Assembly (NCBI GenBank): GCA_033852435.1
Contig: JAWOMO010000022.1
Location: forward strand, 91,448 to 155,447
DNA: 64,000 nucleotides
Source of the DNA: Nitrospira sp.
GTDB lineage: Bacteria; Nitrospirota; Nitrospiria; Nitrospirales; Nitrospiraceae
Reading direction: 5' to 3'
The notes below the pieces were generated by a model, which was not told the DNA's origin, did no database searches, and saw only the letters and a program-made list of their open reading frames with translations. Below, in pieces: positions 3,156-38,708 of this stretch. The position numbers were made by a program, and so were the translations under genes. How positions within the stretch are numbered: position 1 is the first letter of the stretch; every line of letters begins with the position of its first letter.

Positions 3156-3689
3156 ATCAGTCAGATTCCCTCATTCCCTTCACCCGTCGTAGCCTATTTC
3201 CTGACGTATCTCTTCAGATAATGGCAGTATTGTTTCCGATACTGCTGTTCTCGACGCTGATCTTCCCATCTCGACGGCAAACCAACACAAAGTTTTTAAA
3301 CGCTAGACAGTTCAAGCGCTTGCCTCTTCTCCTTCCTTCTGGCGCGATGAGTTATGACGCTGGTACAGGCGTTGCTGAGAGTACCGCAGCAACTCATTGA
3401 GAACCAGACCATGGCGGCGATCACGAGTTGGACTTCCATTGGCAAGGTACGGCGCCGACGGACCCCCATGAGGACAGGGAAGCCTCTGTCGCGATTGTGG
3501 GATGACCTCCGGATCATGCCCATCTGGAGCGATGCCGTCGCCACGTATTTCTGCCATCCCGGCCGCGTGTCTGCCCTCAGTCGGCGCTCGGCCTCCCAGC
3601 CAATCCAAGAACATCTTCTTTTCTGGGCCTGTGCGTTCCCAAATTCAGGCAAGCCGAGCCCATTTCACCAGATAGTGAAGGAGGTACCT

Positions 3690-4100
3690 ATGACAATGAT
3701 CTCTCAGGCAACGCCCACTGCCGCAGAGGAAAAACTCCAACGCGCAATGCACCTCAGCGGAACGCCAGTGATCAGAGCTATTGAAGCAAAGCCTCGAATG
3801 GTTCGATTGACCGTCAATCTGCCATCGGATCTCGTTGAGAAAATGCGCGACGCGGTCTACTGGACTCCGGGACTCACGCTTGCCTGGATGATTGCACGAT
3901 CTGTCCGCACATCTCTGGCTGAACTGGAACAGGCTCACCAGGGTCCCTTTCCCAAACGCTCCAAACCGCTCCGTGCCGGTCGGCCTCGATTGGTTGGCCA
4001 ATCGATGAAGGTCCAGGCTCAACCGTCCAACAGCAGAGGAACATCATCGGGGGACCGCTCCATGCAAGCCCGCGTGGTTTCAGAACCGTTGAAGGAGTGA
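3690..4100 (+). CDS. Small DNA-binding-like protein (ribbon-helix-helix / ParB-C-like tail), function tentative
   Basis: ATG 3690 lies 5 nt after GAAGGAGG. The upstream 336 nt of the track ORF 3354..4100 lacks coding character. VRLTVNLPSDLVEKMRDAV looks like an RHH strand-helix start. The tail PFPKRSKPLRAGRP resembles ParA-associated centromere-binding proteins as I recall them. Confidence 0.5.
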   Translation: MTMISQATPTAAEEKLQRAMHLSGTPVIRAIEAKPRMVRLTVNLPSDLVEKMRDAVYWTPGLTLAWMIARSVRTSLAELEQAHQGPFPKRSKPLRAGRPRLVGQSMKVQAQPSNSRGTSSGDRSMQARVVSEPLKE

Positions 4101-14681: not shown

Positions 14682-15697
14682 GCCTGCCCTTTCTCCGGCT
14701 TGGCAACCCGCTCCATGAGATCGCCGACCGCTTTCCTGCAAGACTTGCCCTCGAAGAGCACCGCGTTGATCTCACGCACGATCGGCATTTCCACCCTGTG
14801 ACGAAGCGCCAAGCCTGCGGCCGCCCGGCTGGTCCGAATTCCTTCGGCCACAGCATGCATACCGCCGAGTATCGTCTCGAGTGACTCGCCTTTACCGAGA
14901 CGAACGCCGACGGTATGGTTGCGGCTCAATGCTCCTGTGCAGGTCAGCACCAGATCTCCGACACCTGATAACCCATAGAATGTCCGCGGGTCGGCGCCCA
15001 TGGCATTTCCGAGACGGACCATTTCGGCCAGACCTCTCGTGATCAACGCGGCGCGTGTGTTGTGCCCGAGCCCCAGCCCATCAACCACTCCCGCCGCCAA
15101 TGCCATCACATTCTTCAACGCGCCGCCCAATTGCACGCCGATGACATCGCTGTCTGCATAGACTCGCAAGGCCGGCGTCATGAAGACAGTCTGAAACGCT
15201 TCGACGAGCGAACCGTCCTTCCCTGCCAGACAGAGGGCCGTCGGTTGTCCCTGGCTGACTTCCGTCGCAAAACTTGGCCCCGATAACACCATCAGTCGAT
15301 CATGGAGTGGCGGAGGCAGCACATCATCCATCACTTGCGTCATCAGTTTTAACGTGTCTTCTTCGACACCCTTCGTCGCACTCACGATGGGCGTGGAACG
15401 TGATAGAAGGGGGGCAACCTGCCGGAGTACCTGACGGGCCACATGCGACGGCACGACGAATAGCAGGCCGTCACAGCCCTCTACGGCTTCGACCAACGTA
15501 TTCGTGACGACGAGTGCTAACGGAAGGGTGACTCCTGGCAAGAACAACTGGTTCTCCCGTTTGGAGGTGATTGAATCGACCACATCCCGCTCGTAAGCCC
15601 AAAGAGTGGTGTGGAAACCTTTCTCCGCCAAATGTTTTGCCAGGGCTGTTCCCCAGGCCCCTGCTCCTATGACTCCTATTCGATGGATGGTCGGCAT
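14678..15697 (-). CDS. gpsA: NAD(P)H-dependent glycerol-3-phosphate dehydrogenase
   Basis: It has IGVIGAGAWGTALA (Rossmann), GALKNVMALAAG and SRNHTVG motifs. Confidence 0.95.
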   Translation of the reverse strand: MPTIHRIGVIGAGAWGTALAKHLAEKGFHTTLWAYERDVVDSITSKRENQLFLPGVTLPLALVVTNTLVEAVEGCDGLLFVVPSHVARQVLRQVAPLLSRSTPIVSATKGVEEDTLKLMTQVMDDVLPPPLHDRLMVLSGPSFATEVSQGQPTALCLAGKDGSLVEAFQTVFMTPALRVYADSDVIGVQLGGALKNVMALAAGVVDGLGLGHNTRAALITRGLAEMVRLGNAMGADPRTFYGLSGVGDLVLTCTGALSRNHTVGVRLGKGESLETILGGMHAVAEGIRTSRAAAGLALRHRVEMPIVREINAVLFEGKSCRKAVGDLMERVAKPEKGQA

Positions 15698-23401: not shown

Positions 23402-24154
23402 ATGCGCCTGACGATTCTTGGTTCCGGCACGAACGTCCATCCGACGCGAGCGGCGGCCGGTTACATCGTGCGGACCGATCAGACCTTGCTGCTCGACTTC
23501 GGACCCCGAACACTCATGAATCTGATGCGGACCGGCGTGAATCGCCATCGTATCGAGTACATTCTGTTCTCGCATTACCACAGCGACCATTTCGCCGACT
23601 TCATTCCTTTCTTTTTCGATGCGGTATTCTATTCGAACTATATCGGGCATAGACCCGATCTCACCCTCATCGGACCACGAGGAACCACACGGCTCTTCCG
23701 CACCCTTATAGCCACACTGCCGGGGTTCAAGAAGGCCCGCTTCAAGAGCCGTTTCAGAGAGGTGTCCGATCGAGCATTTCATATCGGGAAGACGTCCATT
23801 GTCCCGCGGACTGTCACCCACAGTCCCGGCCTGCATTGCATCGGCTATCGCATCGAGTACGGCGGGCGGGCCATCGCCTATTCCGGCGATGCGCAGTACT
23901 GCCACAATCTGGTGCCGCTTTGCGGTGACGTCGATCTTGCCGTGCTGGATTGCTCGTTCCCGGCAAACAAGCCGGGCCCTGGACATCTGCATGCCGGTGA
24001 ATGCGGGCAAGTGGCAGCGGAGGCAGGAGTCGGCCGCCTGGTACTCTCGCATTTCTATCCGATTGCGGAACGGTACAACGTGAAGGAGCAGGCAGGAGAA
24101 TCGTTCGGCGGACCGATCACGCTTGCCGGCGATCGAATGACGATCAAAATCTGA
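23402..24154 (+). CDS. MBL-fold metallo-hydrolase (RNase Z-like)
   Basis: It has the HYHSDH (HxHxDH) motif, downstream GD/H ligands, and a length of ~250 aa. Confidence 0.8.
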   Translation: MRLTILGSGTNVHPTRAAAGYIVRTDQTLLLDFGPRTLMNLMRTGVNRHRIEYILFSHYHSDHFADFIPFFFDAVFYSNYIGHRPDLTLIGPRGTTRLFRTLIATLPGFKKARFKSRFREVSDRAFHIGKTSIVPRTVTHSPGLHCIGYRIEYGGRAIAYSGDAQYCHNLVPLCGDVDLAVLDCSFPANKPGPGHLHAGECGQVAAEAGVGRLVLSHFYPIAERYNVKEQAGESFGGPITLAGDRMTIKI

Positions 24155-24180
24155 TACCAGAAGACAAGAGGCCCATCAAC

Positions 24181-24376
24181 GCAGGATGCTCAAAATCGAC
24201 CCGGGCAAGGCCGCAGCGAGCGAGAAGACGAGGAGGTACATACCAAGCTTTGCTTGAGCCGCTCGCTTCGATCACATGCGAGCGGAGAGGTACTTTCCCT
24301 CAACTGACCACTTCCATACGTTGAGTCTTTGAACGATGCGAGAACGCAGCCCGAGGCGATTTTCGGCATCCTGCTA
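24181..24376. repeat. Structured ~196-nt palindromic repeat, copy A (candidate ncRNA / REP- or MITE-like element)
   Basis: It aligns end to end with 38005-38201 in the same orientation. A 57-nt core has only 2 differences. It has ~26-nt terminal inverted repeats and internal hairpins CAAGC-TTT-GCTTG and CCGCTCGC-11nt-GCGAGCGG. No conserved ORF is present. Confidence 0.85.
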
Positions 24377-25261
24377 GAGGCCGCCTTCTTTGATTTCACA
24401 CCCTAAGATCTCCATAAACTTCGTCAGGCGGGCTTTCTTGAGAGGATCGTCGAGCTTGGCATAGATCGCGAGAAGATTCTTGATCATGCGCGAGAGAATG
24501 GCGCGCACCGGGCTGTGCTGGAGATATTTCTCGTCAAATCCGTAGCCCGCTTCGGTGAGAAAGCGCTGGCAGTTCTTCTCCGTCAGCAAGGCCCCGCCGT
24601 TGAAGCAATCGACGAAAATCTTGTACCGATCCGATTCATACTTGACGAGGAAATGCCCCGGCATGCCGATGCCATGCACCGGAAGACGCAGCCGCTTGCC
24701 GATCAGCAGGTAGACCACCGACAGGCTGATCGGAATCCCGGTCCGCCGGTCGATGACGCGATTGATGTAGCTGTTCTCAACCTCGTAATAATTCTTCGTG
24801 TTGCCCTTAAACCCCTGCTCCGTAAACAGATAGCGATTGAGCGTCTTGACCGTTTCCTCGCCGGATGCCCGAGGACCGATGCGATCCTGCACCTCCTGCG
24901 CCATTTCGTCCAGCAGGCGCGTATAGATCGATACGTCCAGTGAAGGATAGGCGTAGCGGGCGATCAGAAACGCCCCCTGCTCCAAATCCATGCTCTCGTC
25001 CGGCATGGCCGCCAACTGAATGAACTCGTCTTCCAGCTTGCCGCCACGGATCTCCTCGAGTACCGAGGCGATCCGCTCCGCCATTTCTGGTTGTTCGATC
25101 TCGGCTTCTTGCAGGAGGGGCACGGCTGAGGGACCGAATTCAATCAGCTTGTCGCTGATTGTCTGGACGATTTTTTCGTCCTCATCGGCGAGCAATCGGA
25201 TGAGGGCCCGAATTTGACTCTCGTTCACGACCATGATGAGCCTCCTGGACAACCCAGGCAA
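24374..25261 (-). CDS. SirB1/YchA-like transglutaminase-like protein with an N-terminal HEAT-like region
   Basis: NRYLFTEQGFKGNTKNYYEVENSYINRVIDRRTGIPISLSVVYLLIGKRLRLPVHGIGMPGHFLV is the UPF0162/SirB1 signature as I recall it. Confidence 0.6.
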   Translation of the reverse strand: MPGLSRRLIMVVNESQIRALIRLLADEDEKIVQTISDKLIEFGPSAVPLLQEAEIEQPEMAERIASVLEEIRGGKLEDEFIQLAAMPDESMDLEQGAFLIARYAYPSLDVSIYTRLLDEMAQEVQDRIGPRASGEETVKTLNRYLFTEQGFKGNTKNYYEVENSYINRVIDRRTGIPISLSVVYLLIGKRLRLPVHGIGMPGHFLVKYESDRYKIFVDCFNGGALLTEKNCQRFLTEAGYGFDEKYLQHSPVRAILSRMIKNLLAIYAKLDDPLKKARLTKFMEILGCEIKEGGL

Positions 25262-37964: not shown

Positions 37965-38004
37965 ACGGCTCCATAGCGGGGTTGGAGAAATAGAAGAACG
38001 TCCA

Positions 38005-38201
38005 GCAGGATACTCAAAAAGGCCGTCCGGCAAGGCCGCAACAAGCGAAGGGGCGAGGAGGTACATACCAAGCTTCGCTTGGGCCGCTCGCTTCGATCAC
38101 ATGCGAGCGGATAGTTACTTTGCCTCAAGCTGGATTCTCGGTACGTTGAGCCTCTGAGCGCAGTGAGAACGACGCCGGCGGACTTTTTCAGCATCCTGCT
38201 A
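38005..38201. repeat. Structured ~197-nt palindromic repeat, copy B
   Basis: It is homologous to 24181-24376 over its full length. It keeps the same internal hairpins, and its terminal helix is maintained by compensatory substitutions relative to copy A. Confidence 0.85.
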
Positions 38202-38708
38202 AGCGGTTGAGACAGACTGGTGCCCCTGGCTCACGAGCAGGCCAAGGACCACTTGGCTGAGACGTCGCTGGTCGGGCAACGGCACTTCGAGAAAGCGCAC
38301 CCCCACCGAGGAGGGACGGACGGAACAGACCATCGCCGTTTCGATCCGAATGGCCTCGTCCTCCTGCTTGGGCTTCAAAACCAGTCCAAGAAATGTCCCG
38401 CGCGGTAACCCTGTCGTCTGCAGCGTACAGCCGTCCATCGAAATATCGGTGATGCGGTTCGTCGCTTGCATCCGATTGTCGGCGAGAAACTGCGCCTCGA
38501 TTGATGTAGGAAGCCGCTTATATTGGCGGCGATCGAAGGCCTGCATGCTTTGGCGATCCCCTCGGTGGAAGGCGCGGAACTTATTCATGCAGAGCTGGCA
38601 ACGAAAGGGGAAGAGGTTCAACTGATTCATGACGCGCTCCATCGTGCCATCCTGATAGGTCACGCGCACGAACGGTGTGCCGCAATTCGGACAGTGGACT
38701 GTCTTCAT
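38199..38708 (-). CDS. Zinc-ribbon + PilZ-domain protein
   Basis: It has CPNCG...CQLC at the N-terminus, then RRQYKRLP ... DISMDGC, the PilZ RxxxR / D.S.GG-like signature. Confidence 0.7.
   Translation of the reverse strand: MKTVHCPNCGTPFVRVTYQDGTMERVMNQLNLFPFRCQLCMNKFRAFHRGDRQSMQAFDRRQYKRLPTSIEAQFLADNRMQATNRITDISMDGCTLQTTGLPRGTFLGLVLKPKQEDEAIRIETAMVCSVRPSSVGVRFLEVPLPDQRRLSQVVLGLLVSQGHQSVSTA

Follow-up and report, generated by a model that had tools for sequence, protein, structure and literature searches.

What kind of sequence fills the junction between two converging genes at positions 24181-24376 of the Nitrospira sp. DNA studied here (the window, that is, the whole stretch of 64,000 nt that was analyzed), and how is its second copy at 38005-38201 to be explained? 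A first-pass annotation had left four options, namely a structured ncRNA, a REP/BIME-like palindromic element, a non-autonomous MITE and a complex bidirectional terminator. Our data favor those options that treat the unit as a repeat element, because it is multi-copy, lineage-restricted and modular and differs in presence or absence at orthologous sites; it lacks, however, defining traits of both REPs and MITEs. The best explanation, to which we attach moderate confidence, is that both copies represent a Nitrospiraceae-wide, non-coding, non-autonomous, hairpin-forming interspersed repeat of the general kind that includes MITEs, REP/BIME/REPIN sequences and ERIC. The parts of the two copies are listed here; the E-values stem from an nhmmer family profile made from 41 copies.

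24181-24376, plus strand: copy A, complete short-form element with core, 196 nt (alignment to copy B; nhmmer E=7.6e-53; fold z=-5.8)
24181-24206, plus strand: copy A, 5' arm of the terminal stem, A-tract 24192-24195 included (inverted repeat I1, 26 nt, 85% complementary; helix 1 covaries family-wide)
24230-24286, plus strand: copy A, conserved core with the SD-like GAGGAGG, hairpin 1 (24244-24256) and hairpin 2 (24259-24285)
24244-24256, plus strand: copy A, hairpin 1, CAAGC-TTY-GCTTG
24259-24285, plus strand: copy A, hairpin 2, CCGCTCGC/GCGAGCGG, loop of 11 nt
24299-24325, plus strand: copy A, variable hairpin 3, CTCAAC...GTTGAG, the fast-evolving segment of the family
24349-24374, plus strand: copy A, 3' arm of the terminal stem, T-tract 24360-24363 included (partner of I1; family-wide covariation)
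24374-24376, minus strand: copy A, terminal CTA; its complement, TAG, terminates the Transglut_core2/SirB1-like gene (24374-25234, minus strand; ORF list and independent gene call in the source assembly)
38005-38201, plus strand: copy B, complete short-form element with core, 197 nt (nhmmer match 38004-38201, E=2.5e-60; fold z=-4.2)
38004-38025, plus strand: copy B, 5' arm of the terminal stem (inverted repeat I3, 22 nt, 86% complementary)
38055-38111, plus strand: copy B, conserved core
38179-38200, plus strand: copy B, 3' arm of the terminal stem (partner of I3)
38199-38201, minus strand: copy B, terminal CTA; its complement, TAG, terminates the PilZ-domain gene (38199-38708, minus strand)

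Copy A separates a metallo-beta-lactamase-fold gene from the Transglut_core2/SirB1 gene, and copy B lies between PanC and the gene of the PilZ protein; both pairs are convergent. The description of the unit given in the first-pass annotation was largely accurate. The copies indeed align end to end in the same orientation, with identities of 81% in an extended alignment of 289 columns and 89% in the central 100 nt, and the 57-nt cores, said to differ at two positions, do so at exactly two (24230-24286 versus 38055-38111). The CAAGC-TTY-GCTTG hairpin, the stem with the 11-nt loop and the CTCAAC...GTTGAG hairpin were all found at their sites in copy A, and the imperfect inverted repeats of about 26 nt claimed for the ends correspond to the 85% complementary arms of this copy. 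The count of a single plus-strand ATG in copy A was wrong, as there are three (GGATGC, CACATGCG and CGATGCG). Two core probes with up to three mismatches matched the window at 24230-24286 and 38055-38111 only, with none expected from shuffles, and both copies fold far below shuffled sequences on both strands (z -3.8 to -5.8).

None of the observations that would have refuted the first-pass annotation was made, and far more than two copies exist. A 19-base core probe matched at least 117 stretches in 66 assemblies, all of Nitrospirota and among them that of the cultured Nitrospira moscoviensis; as the scan of the collection demanded the exact core 19-mer, conservation of this stretch is built into the sample. 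The family appears to be common, as the 64-kb window holds two copies and a stretch of 8 kb from N. moscoviensis three, and each assembly has several. No Rfam family was matched anywhere in the window at gathering thresholds (0 matches), and at E<=10 the region 24100-24460 returned only a 14-nt fragment of DUF805b (11.9 bits versus a threshold of 35.6). ARAGORN detected neither tRNA nor tmRNA in the window. Viral contigs yielded 0 matches with the core probe and, with a second probe, three chance matches in one coding region without a profile match. Plasmid and phage collections searched with copy B gave no match, nor did 5,426 E. coli genomes searched with copy A by blastn (word size 11), and among the papers searched for Nitrospira repeats, MITEs or ncRNAs none was relevant. 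The 196-base unit belongs to a previously undescribed repeat family restricted to Nitrospira-type nitrifying bacteria.

The basal unit of this family is an imperfect hairpin of about 128 nt that comprises an outer stem, an A5/T5 tract adjoining an invariant C.C mismatch, a GC-rich stem and a second stem, the tracts being nearly invariant across the family. Its ends read GCAGGATGC...GCATCCTGC, and asymmetric internal loops (AAGGCCGCAG / GAGAAC) are conserved. In copies A and B a core module of about 72 nt with two small hairpins nests at the apex of the hairpin; family-wide this module is optional, and core-less copies of about 128 nt occur. Other small palindromic modules nest elsewhere in the element, and in long forms a 44-nt module is present, with a covarying hairpin of its own. 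Conservation is highest in the interior core and not at the ends, which is the opposite of what is seen in most transposase-driven MITEs. The core is nearly invariant across the 66 assemblies, while the stems merely covary; hairpin 2, which lies outside the search probe, is still conserved there and shows occasional compensatory changes. Interior lengths peak at 47, 49, 53 and 55 nt, and variants differ by 2, 4, 6 or 8 nt. The hypervariable segment occurs in a handful of common subfamilies, and in the orthologous pair L040/L099 it is the hairpin-3 segment that has diverged while the remainder is about 98% identical. The core is also found within a second, unrelated Nitrospira repeat family with TA-flanked terminal repeats (IS630-type flanks).

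Covariation in the larger alignment is strong. Double changes affect 24 of the 47 pairs, a number reached by none of 500 shuffles, and 94.8% of cells are paired, as compared with 87.9% in shuffles and 32-42% in slid controls. The outer 11-bp stem, which lies beyond the U-run, covaries as well. Wobble pairs are distributed asymmetrically, with 85 of the G-U type versus 29 of the A-C type (25 pairs versus 5; sign test p=3e-4), and in an independent set of long forms the corresponding counts are 36 and 14. The consensus folding energy amounts to -53 kcal/mol on the plus strand and -36 kcal/mol on the minus strand; in long forms overall it is the other strand that folds better.

The position of the elements relative to genes follows a rule. 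As in copies A and B, the terminal CTA, TTA or TCA is the stop codon of an opposite-strand gene in 48 of 121 copies, when an opposite-strand ORF of at least 70 codons ending exactly on the terminal triplet is required. The first base of the triplet is C in 34 and T in 14 of these copies, and an earlier count of 39 abutting copies comprised 26 CTA, 8 TTA and 5 TCA. CTA is also enriched among the 73 non-abutting copies (C 39, T 38, A 33), and the fourth base, beyond the triplet, is G or A. Polarity is fixed, the CTA end being located on, or a few bases from, the stop codon of the opposite-strand gene. The gene on the other side of the element faces either way (28 convergent, 32 co-directional). 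Filling of a convergent-gene junction, as proposed initially, is thus correct for the two window copies, whereas the rule for the family is abutment on the stop codon of an opposite-strand gene. The better-folding strand is antisense to the abutted gene, a feature for which no simple insertion model accounts. That the last three bases of both window copies (24374-24376 and 38199-38201) overlap with the TAG stop of the neighboring gene had gone unnoticed in the initial description.

Orthologous sites of relatives are empty or contain core-less, core-containing or decayed elements, and the end of the abutting protein is unchanged. The closest orthologue (89% protein identity), like many others, has no element at the site next to the PilZ gene, while several lineages, one of them distant (68% identity), have diverse variants; the PilZ orthologues end at the same codon (..NA* versus ..TA*) irrespective of the presence of the element. 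At the SirB1 site, various relatives possess the 196-nt core form, a 124-nt core-less form, a decayed form, an unrelated spacer of 51 nt or a spacer of 10 nt, and the length of the SirB1-like protein (286-287 aa) is conserved in 120 homologues. At one locus the form of the element varies between species with flanks that are 90-95% identical. The divergence between empty and filled orthologous spacers is too great for the exact insertion junction to be reconstructed. Mean identity of copies is 87.4% within genomes and 79.0% between genomes. These differences in occupancy, taken together with the higher similarity within genomes, suggest that the family spreads within genomes. Recent movement is not supported, since the top identity within a genome is 95% and no identical or near-identical pair was seen. 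Gene conversion between copies could be an alternative source both of the within-genome similarity and of the switches between forms at fixed loci.

How might such an element move? A comparison of flanks in 73 copies revealed 2-, 3- and 4-nt matches in 4-6, 1-2 and 0 cases, respectively, against chance values of about 4.6, 1.1 and 0.3, which speaks against a target-site duplication. The left flank is not conserved, nor is anything else outside the arms. Clustering of the 854 ORFs located within about 4 kb of copies disclosed no recurrent family that could represent a transposase, the biggest clusters being artefactual ORFs through the element, and when about 1.2 Mb of Nitrospira DNA was screened for orphan arms around a larger element, only truncated or rearranged copies turned up. 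We propose that the element would be mobilized in trans by an enzyme encoded away from the copies. Given that the stems are retained by pairing and not by sequence, that wobble pairs are biased to one strand, that a conserved trinucleotide marks one end only and that no duplication is present, this enzyme most likely would use folded single-stranded DNA as its substrate, as do the HUH/Y1 enzymes of IS200/IS605 and of REP-RAYT systems. The element probably moves as single-stranded DNA.

A transcript that crosses the element from either side would gain a very stable hairpin of about 190 nt with GC-rich stems followed by a U-run. The element thereby probably places a 3'-end barrier, stabilizer or terminator between neighboring genes. 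This role is an inference, as consensus scans for canonical terminators and sigma-70 promoters around both copies had no hit inside the elements.

A different reading assigns the primary function to RNA. The plus-strand transcript, or at least the roughly 105-nt core that the second stem closes, would act as a multi-copy structured ncRNA, possibly as a protein- or ribosome-binding module (GAGGAGG, or CCUCCUC on the other strand) or, where genes end, as an RNA with antisense or insulating function, and the repeat vehicle would merely spread the RNA module. The preference of wobble counts and consensus folding energy for one strand speaks for this model, although the same wobble bias would be expected from folded single-stranded DNA. 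The near-invariance of the core next to stems that only covary and the presence of this core in the second, TA-flanked family point in the same direction, and the conserved loops AAGGCCGCAG / GAGAAC resemble binding motifs. Moreover, orthologous copies (90-95% identical) diverge more slowly than synonymous sites, the third codon positions of the flanking genes being 80-89% identical. The core is, however, optional, and many copies do without it, including copies at both orthologous sites described above. No promoter-like site exists in or before the element and no conservation outside the arms, and the gene upstream on the plus strand faces either way equally often, so that there is no systematic source of plus-strand transcription. 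Taken together with the lack of an Rfam match, these points make the RNA model possible but unlikely.

Still more tentatively, and with a rather small probability in our estimate, the module of about 105 nt (GAGGAGG, hairpins 1 and 2, the variable hairpin and the covarying closing stem) would be a functional structured nucleic acid, a domesticated payload written beside stop codons all over Nitrospira genomes by at least two vehicles, the hairpin element without target-site duplication and the TA-flanked MITE. If so, the principal nitrite-oxidizing and comammox bacteria would possess at the 3' ends of their genes a regulatory RNA or protein-binding element that is new and multi-copy and that owes its position to a stop-codon-adjacent insertion mechanism without a described equivalent.

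A classical cut-and-paste MITE, whose 26-nt terminal inverted repeats (GCAGGATGCTCAAAA-type termini) are acted upon by a DDE transposase from a full-length IS elsewhere in the genome, is improbable. The element shares with MITEs its small size, the lack of coding capacity, the many copies, the insertion polymorphism and terminal inverted repeats of 22-26 nt, and the second family with the same core does show IS630-type TA flanks. Yet the terminal repeats vary by compensatory change instead of staying conserved, the ends are asymmetric with CTA following one arm only, and flank matches of 2-4 nt remain at chance level. The 1.2 Mb of Nitrospira DNA searched likewise held no transposase-enclosing element with these termini.

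It is very improbable that the unit is a bidirectional intrinsic terminator that evolved locally between the genes of a convergent pair, without a history as a repeat. The nearly invariant A5 and T5 tracts lie on opposite sides of the GC-rich stems, so that either strand reads as a stem with a trailing U-run; both window copies, too, are situated between convergent genes. Half of the copies are nevertheless outside convergent pairs, orthologous convergent junctions manage with spacers of 10-51 nt, and the outer 11-bp stem covaries despite its location beyond the U-run. The format of an intrinsic terminator (short GC-rich hairpin, loop of 3-8 nt, T-run) does not apply, the 'loop' exceeding 100 nt and the T-run itself being paired, and the consensus terminator scan was empty. 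A local origin is refuted by the existence of the repeat family, with units that are 80-95% identical at unrelated loci and in unrelated species.

Hardly credible, finally, is a minus-strand protein of about 59 aa that starts at an ATG inside CAGGATGCTG, 4 nt past the upstream stop, and whose translation is coupled to that of the gene before it. In both window copies the minus-strand frame stays open throughout from the aligned ATG, ORFs through the element make up the largest 'protein' clusters at the loci, and the fixed spacing between stop and ATG would fit coupling, but the family-wide length changes of 2, 4, 6 and 8 nt are not multiples of three, and stem covariation alters the would-be peptide, on which grounds we rejected it. 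The stop is also unconserved (59 aa in copy A versus 125 aa in copy B), the frame is destroyed in core-less and long forms, and AGGA directly against the ATG leaves no usable Shine-Dalgarno spacing. The initial view of the unit as non-coding is supported by the same length changes; from copies A and B alone it could not be deduced, as the open frame runs through both. A second short minus-strand ORF, from GGTATGTACC, was rejected because covariation of the second stem rewrites it.

The favored hairpin-forming repeat may be compared with known systems. Like REP/BIME/REPIN sequences with their RAYT, it is an abundant, intergenic and vertically persistent hairpin repeat whose long hairpin is kept by compensatory change; target-site duplications are absent from both systems, and in both the copies within one genome form their own population. 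REPs have a conserved GTAG on one side of the palindrome (PMC8266576). The (C)TAG of the Nitrospira element on the gene strand is similarly one-sided, but not identical, and it is confounded with stop-codon use. In REP-RAYT one folded strand is recognized and mismatches in the stem are functionally important, which by analogy may hold for the Nitrospira element. Unlike the REP units, which are themselves palindromic (20-50 nt, in inverted pairs), the Nitrospira arms pair only with each other to form one long hairpin; when folded individually as DNA, the four arms of copies A and B gave z-scores of -0.28 to +0.84 and -1.1 to -3.3 kcal/mol. Further differences are the large, highly conserved interior, as opposed to the short and variable spacers of REPINs, the absence of a linked RAYT gene from the 854 ORFs within about 4 kb of copies and the lack of sequence similarity of E. 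coli REPs to copy A.

ERIC sequences are imperfect palindromes of about 127 nt in transcribed intergenic regions, and the folded RNA affects the fate of neighboring mRNA. Shorter forms with internal deletions are known, as are longer ones in which some 70 nt are inserted at fixed positions in the interior, and copy number varies widely between species. The 127-nt unit with its 70-nt insertions is closely paralleled by the 128-nt basal unit and nested 72-nt core described here. By contrast, a TA target duplication is reported for ERIC and absent here, the blastn search of E. coli genomes revealed no sequence similarity, the hosts belong to a different phylum, and exact abutment on stop codons is not known as a trait of ERIC.

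Correia (NEMIS) elements and IS630-type MITEs are likewise non-coding, 100-250 nt long and equipped with terminal inverted repeats of about 26 nt and with internal-deletion variants; their gene-adjacent location and co-transcription as hairpins may also have a counterpart in the Nitrospira element. They insert at TA and duplicate it, whereas the Nitrospira element has TA at one end without duplication; its distinction from Correia elements is based on their description. IS200/IS605 elements and their miniature derivatives share with it a fixed polarity beside a short one-sided sequence and the lack of a duplication, and their dependence on folded single-stranded DNA with an asymmetry for the top strand may apply by analogy. 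They differ in having separate subterminal hairpins at each end instead of ends that pair with each other, a strict target of 4-5 nt instead of any of three stop codons, and TnpA/TnpB, neither of which was found near the Nitrospira copies.

Proximity to stop codons has reportedly been noted elsewhere, in that the ends of MIRUs were said by Supply et al. in 1997 to overlap the stop codon of the upstream gene. MIRUs, however, are direct repeats with small coupled ORFs, whereas the Nitrospira unit is a palindrome without a conserved reading frame. For E. coli, Liang, Rudd and Deutscher reportedly found in 2015 that REPs within about 15 nt of a stop codon influence translation termination and the fate of the mRNA. 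The latter effect was measured experimentally, in contrast to the Nitrospira element, which is known here from sequence alone.

Nitrospira are the dominant nitrite oxidizers and complete ammonia oxidizers in soils, fresh water and wastewater plants, and to our knowledge almost nothing is known about their non-coding genome. Located at the 3' ends of ordinary housekeeping genes, the element may shape transcript ends and stability genome-wide. With its landing on or beside stop codons, fixed polarity without duplication, nested modules and a near-invariant interior common to two unrelated families, it is a useful model for site choice and cargo recruitment by small palindromic repeats. On the practical side, the family could be used for lineage-specific typing; it likely accounts for contig breaks, as several loci enter N-runs inside the element, and for spurious ORF calls of 60-130 aa in Nitrospira MAGs.

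Three further candidates were considered and rejected. A guide or antisense role of the hypervariable segment specific to each copy is incompatible with its occurrence in a handful of subfamilies, as it is not unique to a locus. CUGAGCGA...GAGAAC is hammerhead-like, but by eye does not fit the catalytic core, and Rfam was silent. Integron attC sites were dismissed because the ends lack R''/R' core sites (RYYYAAC ... GTTRRRY) and the copies are single and outside cassette arrays, among syntenic housekeeping genes with element-less orthologues. The sole likeness to attC is a hairpin that starts from the stop codon and whose better-folding strand is antisense to the gene.

The feature formed by copies A and B is real and non-random: they are two members of a new repeat family which has unusual traits and lies within a known kind. 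The window contains the following parts:

24181-24376 (+): copy A, between genes for a metallo-beta-lactamase-fold protein and a Transglut_core2/SirB1 protein
38005-38201 (+): copy B, between genes for PanC and a PilZ protein
24230-24286 and 38055-38111: 57-nt stretch of the conserved core in copies A and B

As stated in the first-pass annotation, the copies can be aligned over their full length on the same strand (81% identity in an extended alignment, 89% over the central 100 nt), their cores differ at 2 positions, and the genes around them are unrelated to each other; the flanking genes of both copies agree with the gene calls of the Nitrospira-type MAG GCA_037932095.1. Two core probes, allowing up to 3 mismatches, matched only copies A and B in the 64-kb window, with 0 matches expected in shuffles. 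The three hairpins and the complementary ends of ~26 nt were found where they had been placed, and both copies fold far above shuffled sequence on either strand (z = -3.8 to -5.8). The description was incomplete in that it overlooked the final three bases of each copy, CTA, which serve the minus-strand neighbour as its TAG stop codon, and it was wrong in counting a single plus-strand ATG in copy A, where three are present.

A search of a species-representative genome collection with a 19-base core probe extended the family far beyond the window, to at least 117 stretches in 66 assemblies. All 117 matches listed are from Nitrospirota, with up to eight loci per assembly among them, and the cultured hosts include N. 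moscoviensis NSP M-1 and Nitrospira sp. BLG_1. The family was absent from viral contigs, plasmids, phages and E. coli in the collections searched, matched no Rfam family and no tRNA-like gene, and no earlier account of it was found in the literature searched. It is testable in N. moscoviensis and, in our judgement, of moderate interest. Copies can be dense: L001 (L-numbers denote loci from other Nitrospira sequences) has three inside 2.3 kb (165-395, 1477-1756, 2121-2400), and L114 (N. moscoviensis NZ_CP011801.1:1616001-1624000) has three in 8 kb, one with the core and two without. In two assemblies N-runs begin inside the element (L036, L103); the assembly of MAGs is probably interrupted or misled by the repeat.

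The family is modular. Two size classes dominate, of ~190-197 nt (the class of the window copies) and ~235-242 nt. A profile built from 41 short copies gave 150 matches in 889 kb, including core-less copies of 124-129 nt whose two stems are capped by a small CGTAC-loop-GTACG hairpin. A hairpin of ~128 nt is therefore the basal unit, and its apex can hold the conserved core of ~72 nt, a nested module that is optional. Long forms carry an extra 44-nt module, a C-rich run plus a covarying GC hairpin, which reads as a G-tract run on the opposite strand (GGGGTTGGGCGGGTGAG) and occupies the 5' arm, the apex or, inverted, the 3' arm; it is not present in the window. Other small GC hairpins are nested at other points, and Nitrospira genomes seem to contain an entire collection of mini-repeats that nest within one another:

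L082:4430-4665, L114:3680-3868, alignment A3 columns 28-75: ~44-nt module, TTCTCACCCGCCCAnCCCC, then a GGCGCGCC-NAGA-CGCGCC hairpin with covarying stem
L008, L086:2645-2874, L110: 33-nt GC hairpin CCTGCCTGCGCGAAGCGCTTCGGCGGAGGCAGG, nested in or beside elements
L130, L135, L156, L072, L043: small palindromic module TTTTCACCCTCCACCCCCGATTGCTTTGCAATCG, nested in or beside elements

Folding of the 41-copy alignment with RNAalifold yielded a rod. Its parts are an outer stem of 7 bp, an A5/T5 tract with an invariant C.C mismatch next to it, a GC-rich stem, asymmetric loops that are conserved, a second stem and the core hairpins. Double changes occur in 24 of the 47 pairs; one pair, for example, is AU in 27 copies and CG in 10, another GC in 20 and CG in 12. 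Paired cells amount to 94.8%, compared with 87.9% in shuffles and 32-42% when partners were slid, and none of 500 shuffles reached the observed values. The structure of the element is under selection. Its C.C mismatch (G.G on the other strand), which adjoins the A5/T5 tract in the terminal stem (alignment A2 columns 14/197; window 24191/24364 and 38015/38189), is reminiscent of the stem bulges that are essential in REPs and at IS608 ends. On the plus strand of the window there are 85 G-U-type against 29 A-C-type cells (25 pairs versus 5; sign test p=3e-4), and an independent long-form set has 36 against 14. The consensus folds at -53 kcal/mol on the plus and -36 kcal/mol on the minus strand, and the plus strand is the more stable in 28 of 41 short copies; long forms overall fold better on the minus strand owing to the G-richness of their 44-nt module on that strand. 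Relative to the abutting gene the favoured strand is the antisense one, and neighbouring gene orientations gave no sign of its systematic transcription.

When elements are read in the plus orientation of the window, 71 right-hand genes are on the minus and 22 on the plus strand; left-hand genes take either strand equally often, giving 28 convergent and 32 co-directional arrangements. Stop codons are abutted with fixed polarity: in 48 of 121 copies the triplet that follows the 3' arm is exactly the end of an ORF of at least 70 codons on the opposite strand, and this triplet begins with C in 34 of them and with T in 14. In an earlier count the triplet of 39 abutting copies was CTA in 26, TTA in 8 and TCA in 5, and CTA is again the commonest triplet in non-abutting copies (n=73). 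The left flank has no conserved target, only a weak CC, and no target-site duplication was found in the element flanks. In L105 (~400-411) and L086, which have a plus-strand right-hand gene, the terminal CTAG leads directly into its Shine-Dalgarno sequence (CTAGGAGGATCGACATG); a position directly before a ribosome-binding site is therefore possible for the element as well.

Orthologous sites are polymorphic. The PilZ gene was recovered in 80 metagenome loci. No copy follows its stop codon in the closest relative (89% identity) or in many others; core-less basal copies occupy the site in L120, L127 and L163 (the last 68% identical), and about a dozen further loci have module-rich or decayed copies there. 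The PilZ protein stops at the same codon throughout. The SirB1 site beside copy A is equally variable, and all 120 SirB1 homologues listed are close to 286 aa:

Window: TAG, then CAGGATG..., 196 nt with core
L206 and L207: TAA, then CAGGCTG..., 124 nt, core-less
Nitrospira sp. KM1: TAA, then CCGGGTATG..., decayed
L203-L205: unrelated 51-nt spacer
L208 and L209: 10-nt spacer

These junctions indicate that the stop codon is native and that the element starts 0-5 nt after it. At gene 3' ends the element may act as a hairpin barrier, terminator or stabiliser, since GC-rich stems are followed by U5 on both strands.

Seven orthologous pairs of genome loci have different forms at the same locus, with flanks 90-95% identical. 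Mean copy identity is 87.4% between loci of one genome and 79.0% between genomes, which fits intragenomic spread, gene conversion, or both; no within-genome pair exceeds 95% identity, and recent bursts are thus not seen. Orphan arms represent truncated copies. No transposase family recurs among the 854 ORFs neighbouring copies. We infer that the element was moved in trans, most likely as folded single-stranded DNA by an HUH-type enzyme, because of its pairing-conserved stems, strand-asymmetric wobble, invariant stem mismatch, one-ended trinucleotide and lack of a duplication.

The core might be a functional RNA or a protein-binding module in its own right. It is near-invariant among copies that were gathered with a 19-base core probe, and elements are 90-95% identical where third codon positions of neighbouring genes are 80-89%, a divergence slower than synonymous, although the segment from TTTGCCTCC to GTACGTTGAG is far more diverged in some pairs (L040/L099). 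The core also occurs in a second vehicle, a different repeat of ~330 nt whose 18-20-nt terminal inverted repeats (GCCCRCATTATTCATGA ... TCATGAATAATGYGGGC) with TA on both flanks are an IS630/Tc1-like signature:

L028 ~3440-3900 (-), L091:2500-2830 (+), L095 (-), L104 (-): ~330-nt repeat

There it is enclosed by a stem similar to the main family's second stem, and L095 has two cores in tandem. However, the core is optional and gives no indication of its own transcription. As for the element as a whole, the evidence fits a palindromic repeat of the MITE/REP/ERIC kind that is lineage-specific and non-autonomous; the narrower classes do not fit, as the arms are not palindromes, unlike those of REPINs, and the target-site duplication of DDE-type MITEs is lacking. 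For these reasons it should be filed beside the REPIN and MITE families, not within them. A protein-coding element was rejected, as interior length varies by 2, 4, 6 and 8 nt across the family (peaks at 47, 49, 53 and 55 nt) and stem covariation would rewrite any peptide; the proposed absence of a conserved ORF thus holds family-wide, yet the minus-strand frame is open through both window copies. ORFs reading through the element form the largest spurious 'protein' clusters.

The window has another imperfect inverted repeat at 14853-14922 (27-nt arms, 74% complementary, 16 nt apart), unrelated in sequence to copies A and B. The metallo-beta-lactamase-fold gene beside copy A (23402-24154, +) has precomputed Pfam matches to PF23023 (Anti-Pycsar_Apyc1) and Lactamase_B. 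Because the synteny of this gene with MarR and SirB1 genes extends across Nitrospira (L198, L202-L209), its product is probably a housekeeping relative and not a phage anti-defence protein.
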